Of a DNA stretch of 64,000 bases, positions 51,990 through 52,850 are shown one piece after another. The notes beneath the pieces were generated by a model that worked only from the letters and a program-made list of their open reading frames with translations, had not been told where the DNA came from and did no database searches. Source of the stretch: Escherichia coli (GTDB taxonomy: Bacteria; Pseudomonadota; Gammaproteobacteria; Enterobacterales; Enterobacteriaceae). Within the stretch, counting starts at the first letter, position 1; each line of letters opens with the position of its first letter. The position numbers and the translations under genes were made by a program. Location of the stretch: assembly GCF_024298765.1 (NCBI RefSeq), contig NZ_CP101210.1; one strand, 5' to 3'.

Positions 51990-52850
51990 ATGTATATAAA
52001 AAAGCACTGGATAGCTTTATCCATTCTATTAATACCTTGCATTGGAAACGCTCAGGAAATTAAAATTGATGAAAGCTGGTTACATCAAAGCTTGAATGTC
52101 ATTGGTCGCACAGACTCTCGCTTTGGCCCAAGACTGACTAACGACCTCTACCCTGAATATACTGTAGCAGGAAGAAAAGACTGGTTTGATTTTTATGGTT
52201 ATGTTGATCTACCAAAATTCTTTGGCGTCGGCAGTCACTATGATGTTGGGATCTGGGATGAGGGCTCACCACTATTTACGGAAATAGAACCTCGGTTTTC
52301 CATTGACAAATTGACCGGATTAAATCTTGCGTTCGGCCCATTTAAAGAATGGTTCATTGCAAACAACTATGTCTATGATATGGGTGACAACCAGTCATCC
52401 CGGCAAAGTACATGGTATATGGGGCTTGGTACAGATATCGACACGGGTCTACCAATTAAGCTTTCTGCCAATATATACGCCAAGTATCAGTGGCAAAACT
52501 ATGGTGCCGCTAATGAAAATGAATGGGACGGATATCGATTCAAAATAAAATATAGCATCCCTCTTACAAATTTATTCGGAGGGCGATTGGTATACAATAG
52601 TTTTACTAACTTTGATTTTGGCTCCGATCTTGCGGACAAGTCACACAATAATAAACGAACCAGTAATGCTATTGCTTCAAGCCATATCCTTTCCCTTCTA
52701 TATGAACACTGGAAATTTGCATTTACACTACGTTATTTTCACAACGGTGGACAATGGAATGCGGGAGAGAAGGTTAACTTCGGAGATGGTCCATTTGAAT
52801 TGAAAAATACAGGATGGGGAACCTATACTACTATTGGTTATCAATTTTAA
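51990..52850 (+). CDS. Tsx-family nucleoside-specific outer-membrane channel paralog (286 aa); accessory
   Basis: Signal peptide [21 protein letters not shown]|QE. Long stretches near-identical to E. coli Tsx as I recall it (FGPFKEW..ANNY.YDMG...[44 protein letters not shown]), with a C-terminal aromatic residue (..GYQF). Confidence 0.85.

Follow-up and report, generated by a model that had tools for sequence, protein, structure and literature searches.

A second Tsx-family channel gene next to nucleotidase genes between metF and metL of Escherichia coli, and its probable place in a nucleotide and nucleoside scavenging module

The stretch of DNA analyzed here (the window) comprises 64,000 nucleotides (64 kb) of Escherichia coli (contig NZ_CP101210.1, assembly GCF_024298765.1) and covers the katG–metF ... 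metL–metB–metJ–yiiX–priA–cytR–ftsN–hslV region. Between metF and metL, it contains a gene for a second member of the Tsx family of outer-membrane channels, together with genes for three 5′-nucleotidases. The working names tsx2 for this Tsx paralog, nt1, nt2, and nt3 for the nucleotidase genes, and hyp for a gene of 374 amino acids (aa) are used throughout. With fair, though far from full, confidence, we take tsx2 to encode a functional nucleoside-type channel and to be the last gene of a unit nt2–nt3–tsx2, within a nucleotide and nucleoside scavenging module controlled by the cAMP receptor protein (CRP).

51990..52850, plus strand: tsx2, 286-aa Tsx-family outer-membrane channel (open reading frame listing, profile and structure searches).

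The open reading frame (ORF) starts with ATG, preceded by a Shine–Dalgarno-like element (AAGAGA, 7 nt 5′ of the ATG), and agrees exactly with the 286-aa frame pointed out in an earlier note on this DNA. The 861-bp coding sequence (CDS) is identical in extent to the tsx2 annotated by RefSeq in other strains. The same note had spoken of long near-identical blocks shared with Tsx. These are real (the longest identical runs with K-12 Tsx are of 26, 18, and 12 aa), and alignment to Tsx, run as a check, places the similarity far above chance. With phmmer against all PDB chains, Tsx is the sole match (1TLW/1TLY/1TLZ, E = 7.3e-115, residues 29–286); with BLASTP against K-12 Tsx, 169/262 residues are identical (65%), with 78% positives and two gaps. 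The Pfam family Channel_Tsx (PF03502) matches with E = 1.7e-69 over model positions 3–244 of 244, and NCBIfam NF011686 with 492.8 bits (curated cutoff 311) over residues 2–286. Read by eye, the N-terminus is a predicted signal peptide (residues 1–21: MYIKKH, a hydrophobic core, and GNA, followed by QE), and the C-terminus (...TIGYQF) ends with Phe, the C-terminal aromatic β-signal. The residues invariant across a 45-sequence family alignment, in which Tsx2 is included, are hence all present. Tsx2 belongs among the Tsx-family barrels, as a paralog of canonical Tsx and not as the ortholog of K-12 tsx.

An AlphaFold2 (AF2) model (45 family members in the alignment) has a predicted local distance difference test score (pLDDT) of 86.5 and 12 main strands. 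The best Foldseek match is 1TLW, with a template modeling (TM) score of 0.92 (target-normalized) and a root-mean-square deviation (rmsd) of 1.9–2.1 Å; the runners-up have TM scores of at most 0.61. In the model, Tsx2 is thus a 12-stranded β-barrel as in 1TLY. With a periplasmic N-terminus presumed, the loops are assigned as follows.

Tsx2 extracellular loops (AF2 model, residues): L1 44–49, L2 74–95, L3 131–138, L4 171–177, L5 211–226, L6 252–274.

Identity to K-12 Tsx is 54% in the predicted extracellular loops, 68% in the strands, and 72% in the periplasmic turns. The most divergent loops are L5 (43%), L6 (48%), and L3 (50%), in line with the presumption of the earlier note that the differing segments are surface loops. 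However, strands β1 (46%), β2 (43%), and β11 (36%) are equally diverged, while loop L4 and strand β6 are 100% identical, so that the presumption is right for only some of the segments. According to PMC6499177 (citing Fsihi 1993 and a 2004 study by Ye and van den Berg), mutating Phe27, Gly28, Ser217, Gly239, or Gly240 (mature K-12 numbering) impairs nucleoside transport. In our alignment, these residues are unchanged in Tsx2 (5/5).

Canonical Tsx serves phage T6 and colicin K as their receptor. The determinants of phage reception given in the same source are segment 198–207, Asn249, and Asn254 (PMC6499177). In Tsx2, loop 5 carries a 5-residue deletion (residues 202–206) within segment 198–207, with the substitutions D198K, G200H, and K207N around it, and Asn254 is replaced by Pro; only Asn249 is kept. 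Because the receptor loops differ in this way from those of K-12 Tsx, Tsx2 is probably no longer recognized by phage T6, and the altered phage and colicin susceptibility proposed in the earlier note is plausible, with the 202–206 deletion and Asn254Pro falling on receptor determinants. Loop L5 is also hypervariable among canonical Tsx orthologs (for example, the Salmonella protein P0015), so that the L5 deletion of Tsx2 is by itself unexceptional.

The gene lies in an accessory segment that takes the place of 199 bp of K-12-type metF–metL intergenic DNA.

45429..53068: whole accessory segment, 7640 bp, ∼40%–48% GC, between metF and metL (BLAST boundaries versus the K-12-like locus).
45660..47213, minus strand: nt1, 517-aa metallophosphatase/5′-nucleotidase, predicted periplasmic; divergent from hyp; also in the short form of the segment.
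47346..48470, plus strand: hyp, 374-aa Cys-rich "cytoplasmic protein," weak match to an IS1/InsA-type Zn-ribbon.
48700..50253, plus strand: nt2, 517-aa metallophosphatase/5′-nucleotidase, predicted periplasmic; probable first gene of nt2–nt3–tsx2.
50294..51913, plus strand: nt3, 539-aa (541 aa from the ATG at 50288) metallophosphatase/5′-nucleotidase, predicted periplasmic; directly 5′ of tsx2.

Of 5426 complete E. coli genomes, 658 (12%) have the entire segment and 1840 (34%) have nt1, which leaves ∼22% with a short form made of nt1 and hyp only. The metF–metL locus thus occurs in E. coli in three allelic states: full (12%), short (∼22%), and empty or K-12-like (∼66%). The part shared by the short and full forms is merely 93% identical between them, which indicates old haplotypes. 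The full-length tsx2 ORF is retained in the 658 genomes with 95%–100% identity. In these genomes, there are two Tsx-like places, the other one being the annotated tsx at the K-12 position (yajI–tsx–yajD), with ∼70% DNA identity to tsx2 over the central 378 nt (distant-mode search). With ∼661 additional Tsx-like places for the 658 genomes, nearly all keep a canonical tsx place, so that tsx2 is a genuine additional copy. A third Tsx-like place occurs in some E. coli genomes, and one E. coli Tsx-like protein (P0117) is 55% identical. In strains CS18F and E06, an IS1A is inserted in nt1, yielding two annotated CDSs; they are otherwise 99.9%–100% identical to the window.

The closest relative of Tsx2 outside E. 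coli is found in Citrobacter enshiensis (86% identical; the next best is at ∼66%), with the same gene order and at the same metF–metL site. Between the two species, the ratio of nonsynonymous to synonymous substitutions (dN/dS) for tsx2 is 0.059, with a dS of 1.37. The dS values of the island genes (0.94–1.8) are comparable to those of the flanking metF (1.09) and metL (0.95); with the low dN/dS, this means that the segment is old and under purifying selection. The possibility that the segment passed recently between E. coli and Citrobacter by horizontal transfer was rejected, as the island dS equals that of the flanks (0.95–1.09).

In Pseudocitrobacter and other Citrobacter, the short form is present at metF–metL. 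At another chromosomal site of Enterobacter hormaechei (locus L013, 3658–9176), hyp is divergent from an nt1-type gene (91.5%), followed by an nt2-type gene (71%) and a Tsx paralog. In Citrobacter freundii (L015/L016, 2380–10760), hyp is likewise divergent from an nt1-type gene (92%), followed by an nt2-type gene (72%), a Tsx paralog, an nt3-type gene (86%), and a radical-SAM gene; there, the spacer between the Tsx paralog and the nt3-type gene is only 21 bp. After the radical-SAM gene of C. freundii comes an HTH_46 gene. Citrobacter and Enterobacter thus again have the Zn-ribbon protein, the three nucleotidase types, and the Tsx paralog, in three gene orders, and linkage kept across genera in differing orders argues for a functional coupling between the nucleotidases and the Tsx paralog. 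The E. hormaechei and C. freundii modules resemble that of E. coli in the nt1-type (91%–92%) and nt2-type (71%–72%) enzymes, in hyp (68%) and the nt3-type enzyme (86%) (both of C. freundii), and in the position of a CRP-like site within a spacer of 131–133 bp between hyp and nt1. Their Tsx paralogs share clade-specific substitutions with Tsx2, but are only ∼60% identical to it, have longer L5 and L6, and occur at different sites and in different gene orders. Homologs of the nucleotidases adjoin xapABR, a major facilitator superfamily (MFS) gene and a PNP gene, or nupC–deoCABD (in Salmonella, Providencia, and Serratia), which ties the family to nucleoside metabolism; one homolog (P0131) is without such neighbors.

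In a neighbor-joining tree (no bootstrap), Tsx2, the channels of the Enterobacter and C. freundii modules, and the protein P0004 group in a clade of their own, outside canonical Tsx. This clade is supported by shared substitutions at ten positions that canonical Tsx conserves to at least 85%: Tyr23, Leu37Pro, Glu40 to Thr/Arg, Phe170, and Trp177, and then His228, Val232Thr, Ala233Leu, Asp244, and Val267Thr. The gene of P0004, a Tsx paralog 66% identical to Tsx2, lies between an MFS transporter gene and sprT–endA (L005, 8001–8849). No nucleotidase genes are found among the neighbors of P0004 or of another close Tsx relative, P0005. Compared with K-12 Tsx, Tsx2 has in common the Pfam and NCBIfam families, the predicted 12-stranded barrel, the five transport residues, the signal peptide, and the C-terminal Phe. 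It is distinguished by its locus (metF–metL rather than yajI–yajD, co-existing with tsx), by the 5-residue deletion in L5, Asn254Pro in L6, and strands β1, β2, and β11 with 36%–46% identity, and by the ten canonical-conserved positions substituted throughout the paralog clade. In addition, tsx2 is probably transcribed with the nucleotidase genes, whereas K-12 tsx is a single gene with CytR- and DeoR-controlled promoters.

The elements that bear on the transcription of tsx2 are the following.

51914..51989, plus strand: nt3–tsx2 spacer, 76 bp, without stable hairpin (fold z = −0.24).
53029..53058: bidirectional intrinsic-terminator hairpin, ΔG −20.3 kcal/mol, z = −5.45; U-runs on both strands.

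Between the nt2 stop (50253) and nt3 lie 40 bp if the RefSeq start (50294) is taken, and 34 bp if the upstream ATG (50288) is; nt3 (stop at 51913) and the tsx2 ATG (51990) are 76 bp apart. The two spacers contain no terminator or stable hairpin, and their folding is no better than that of shuffled sequences. No plus-strand terminator is listed in the scan between the nt2 start (48700) and 53029, and the hairpin at 53029–53058, between the convergent tsx2 and metL, is the first strong plus-strand terminator 3′ of the nt2 start. The simplest reading is that nt2, nt3, and tsx2 probably form one transcription unit. The earlier note had placed tsx2 after two same-strand nucleotidase genes with spacers of 40 and 76 bp, coordinates that hold, and its suggestion of an operon is supported by the strand, the spacers, the lack of an internal terminator, and the cross-genus linkage. 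Since the terminator lies in the segment, the metL terminator region of the carriers is island DNA and not of the K-12 type. A second GC-rich hairpin (52948–52967) has a T-run on the minus strand only.

Control by CRP is suggested by conserved sites in the two promoter regions of the island.

47273..47288: perfect CRP core site (predicted), TGTGAGAGTAATCACA; its center lies 67 bp away from the ATG of nt1 and 65 bp away from that of hyp.
48563..48609: conserved block 5′ of nt2, with an inverted repeat AATGTT-N8-AACATT 21 bp 5′ of the CRP-like site.
48590..48605: CRP-like site, predicted, 9/10, TGTTACTAAGATCACA, inside the conserved block 5′ of nt2.

The site TGTGAGAGTAATCACA is the sole 10/10 CRP core match in the window. 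Its half-sites are retained, with a variable N6 spacer, in 8/8 loci from five genera, where the intergenic region between hyp and nt1 measures 131–133 bp. The ∼50-nt block at 48563–48609 is almost unchanged between E. coli and C. enshiensis, whereas the rest of that intergenic region is poorly conserved. Two of the three CRP-like matches in the window (with at most one mismatch) fall in the two promoter regions of the island (∼360 bp, ∼0.01 expected by our own estimate).

In the CytR/CRP regulon (tsx P2, deoP2, cdd), tandem CRP sites ∼52–53 bp apart flank CytR octamer repeats. Simple pattern scans revealed no such tandem-CRP/CytR architecture here; second sites at the right spacing match at 6/10 or weaker and are not conserved. 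On regulation by CytR and CRP, a question raised in the earlier note, the pattern scans gave single conserved CRP-like sites and no CytR-type architecture, though scans this simple may miss CytR binding. CytR octamers were not used as evidence (eight matches against ∼6 expected by our own estimate, which is chance level). A DeoR operator at the conserved TGTTTAATTAATAACA 5′ of nt2 was also rejected (11/16 to the consensus, with 14 such matches in the window, which is chance level). The gene cytR itself, which that note had assigned to the conserved backbone, is confirmed at 60755–61777 (NF008269 equivalog, 713 bits versus a cutoff of 436), 8 kb from tsx2. Its proximity is a coincidence of the backbone; genomes that lack the island have cytR in that position as well.

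The N-termini of the nucleotidases are all Sec-type signal peptides (3/3, read by eye). The enzymes would therefore act in the periplasm, after the outer membrane, and Tsx2 would stand parallel to them and not downstream. The coupling of dephosphorylation to uptake, as suggested in the earlier note, gains from the linkage conserved across genera, but a linear pathway does not follow, the enzymes being predicted as periplasmic. In the scheme we favor, active cAMP–CRP would lead to additional periplasmic phosphoesterases (nt1–nt3), and nucleotides entering via general porins would be converted into nucleosides and phosphate. Through Tsx2, as an extra nucleoside-specific channel, external nucleosides would cross the outer membrane. 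Channel and enzymes would both supply the periplasmic nucleoside pool, and this would feed NupC/NupG-type inner-membrane transporters encoded elsewhere.

Several points weigh against this scheme. A nucleoside channel is not mechanistically needed by periplasmic enzymes, so that a different substrate is conceivable, and the substitutions shared by the paralog clade could alter channel specificity. A weak promoter-like match (ATGACA-17-AACAAT, 51944–51972), with its −35-like part in a Citrobacter-conserved block (TGGATGACAT, 51941–51950), makes some independent transcription of tsx2 possible. The CRP sites come from a simple consensus scan, in which the three matches in the window are at chance level (2.1 expected), and the site 5′ of nt2 has a non-canonical spacing to any −10 element. 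The signal peptides of Tsx2 and of nt1–nt3 were judged by eye, and no expression or transport data on the Tsx2 paralog were found in the literature.

The topology of enzymes and channel is the main reason for still considering that Tsx2-type paralogs pass phosphorylated substrates (nucleoside monophosphates, dinucleotides, or NAD-like molecules) and thereby feed the co-encoded periplasmic nucleotidases, an alternative we regard as unlikely. If the nucleotidases are periplasmic, as their signal peptides suggest, only an importer of their substrates would be functionally upstream of them, as in other operons where a periplasmic enzyme is encoded together with a specific channel. In three arrangements, the channel gene lies in the midst of nucleotidase genes (in one of them with the 21-bp spacer), the linked paralogs form their own neighbor-joining clade (again, no bootstrap) with shared derived substitutions, and the 97%-conserved mature Glu40, whose strand face also carries other charged residues, becomes Thr or Arg. 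On the other hand, the five nucleoside-transport residues are all unchanged in Tsx2, and P0004, of the same clade, is without nucleotidase linkage. Canonical Tsx is reported not to pass nucleotides, which also counts against this alternative. The mature nucleotidase-linked paralogs have net charges of −5 to −12, within the range of canonical Tsx (mean −8.4, standard deviation 2.6), and a global charge shift hinting at anion selectivity in Tsx2 was rejected for that reason. To the more specific proposal that the nucleotidase-linked paralogs are a distinct subfamily, in which the substitutions in β1, β2, β8, β11, and β12, including the loss of Glu40, would admit nucleotides or phosphorylated derivatives, we give a slim chance. 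Were it true, the five-gene module would be a self-contained system of nucleotide import and then dephosphorylation under CRP and a novel Zn-ribbon regulator.

It is also improbable, in our view, that Tsx2 is chiefly a receptor-variant backup for nucleoside uptake, differing in the loops recognized by Tsx-specific phages, colicin K, or other Tsx-binding agents, with the nucleotidase neighborhood of little mechanistic meaning. The most diverged loops, L5 and L6, do bear the mapped T6 determinants, with the deletion and Asn254Pro, and the nucleoside-transport residues are conserved. However, nearly all tsx2 genomes keep a canonical tsx place (∼661/658, the place being counted and not its intactness), so that there is no sign of tsx2 substituting for a lost tsx. 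The variability of L5 in canonical orthologs makes the divergence not special to Tsx2, and the linkage with nucleotidases across genera, in rearranged orders, would be unexpected for a chance neighbor. Finally, the idea that tsx2 is left over from an old horizontal acquisition, silent or decaying and now without function, is effectively excluded. It would be in keeping with the low GC content (40%, and 36% at third codon positions [GC3], against 53%–58% in the neighboring genes), with the lack of tsx2 in 88% of complete E. coli genomes, and with our finding no published data on its expression. Against it stand the full-length ORF in 658 genomes, the dN/dS of 0.059 over a dS of 1.37 relative to the Citrobacter ortholog, the presence of the alignment-invariant residues, a plausible ribosome-binding site, and the terminator. 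The reading of tsx2 as a working nucleoside-type channel in a scavenging module thus remains the one we prefer.

The tsx2 and nucleotidase region is already known: it is annotated by RefSeq, and the functional idea of the earlier note has been published as a hypothesis (PMC12928451, PLoS One 2026). In that article, the same region is "GR 31" (metL..metF) of the avian pathogenic E. coli (APEC) strain BEN2908, with ORF 131 (861 bp, 67% identical to Tsx) and UshA-domain ORFs of 1620, 1551, and 1554 bp. GR 31 is reported there as complete in APEC O1, IMT5155, RS218/UTI89, IHE3034, 78-Pyelo, CFT073, and LF82/NRG857c, and the authors propose a coordinated system for nucleotide degradation and transport. 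The accessible part of their account is without experiments and without analysis of loops, receptor residues, regulation, selection, distribution outside E. coli, or the 374-aa gene. Of the B2 sequence types, ST131 alone lacks a cluster named "tsx_1" (PMC9836092); this cluster is probably the same gene as tsx2, and its absence agrees with the short form in some strains. In a proteomics paper on RS218, the two Tsx copies are not told apart, and we found no experimental work specific to the Tsx2 paralog in the literature. What is added here is the cross-genus five-gene module, the purifying selection, the residue-level predictions, the conserved CRP-like sites, and the corrected topology.

If the module works as proposed, ∼12% of sequenced E. 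coli would have an extra, catabolite-controlled route for the scavenging of nucleotides and nucleosides. The carriers include the B2 extraintestinal or adherent-invasive strains CFT073, UTI89, RS218, APEC O1, and LF82, and such a route could be of importance to growth in host niches rich in nucleic acids. These strains would also have a Tsx isoform whose surface loops differ, which bears on host-range predictions for Tsx-dependent phages, on colicin K, and on the uptake of Tsx-dependent antibiotics such as albicidin.

The three nucleotidases are 57%–68% identical in pairs (nt3 is at 68% to nt1 and at 57% to nt2). Their translations all show the motifs DxHxH, GDYFTG, GNHEFD, HEG, and GHAH, and metallophosphatase and 5′-nucleotidase C-terminal domains are present (Pfam). 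In domains and motifs, they resemble 5′-nucleotidases of the UshA/YfkN type; unlike UshA, they score below every NCBIfam equivalog cutoff (for UshA, 152–169 bits versus 600), which sets them apart as a separate 5′-nucleotidase subfamily and not UshA. PMC12928451 gives ∼27%–28% identity of these ORFs to YfkN. In nt3, an Asn/Asp-rich insertion of ∼24 residues (ELSLQGLDNDNNNRFDKSSATLKNQ, at about residues 178–206) is missing in nt1 and nt2; in C. enshiensis and C. freundii, the nt3-type enzymes are of similar length (537–539 aa).

The protein encoded by hyp has CxxC motifs at 40, 74, and 97 and gives no Pfam match below 0.001. At all loci examined (in E. coli, Citrobacter, Pseudocitrobacter, and Enterobacter), it is found alongside the module, always divergent from the nt1-type gene, and could be a regulator of the module. 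Its identity to the C. enshiensis protein is 63%, against 86%–92% for the remaining island genes, so that it evolves faster. A terminator-like hairpin follows the gene.

48543..48567: terminator-like hairpin, 3′ of hyp.

In the short form, the 3′ end of hyp differs and overlaps the convergent metL 3′ end by 37 bp (L002, 8047–9177).

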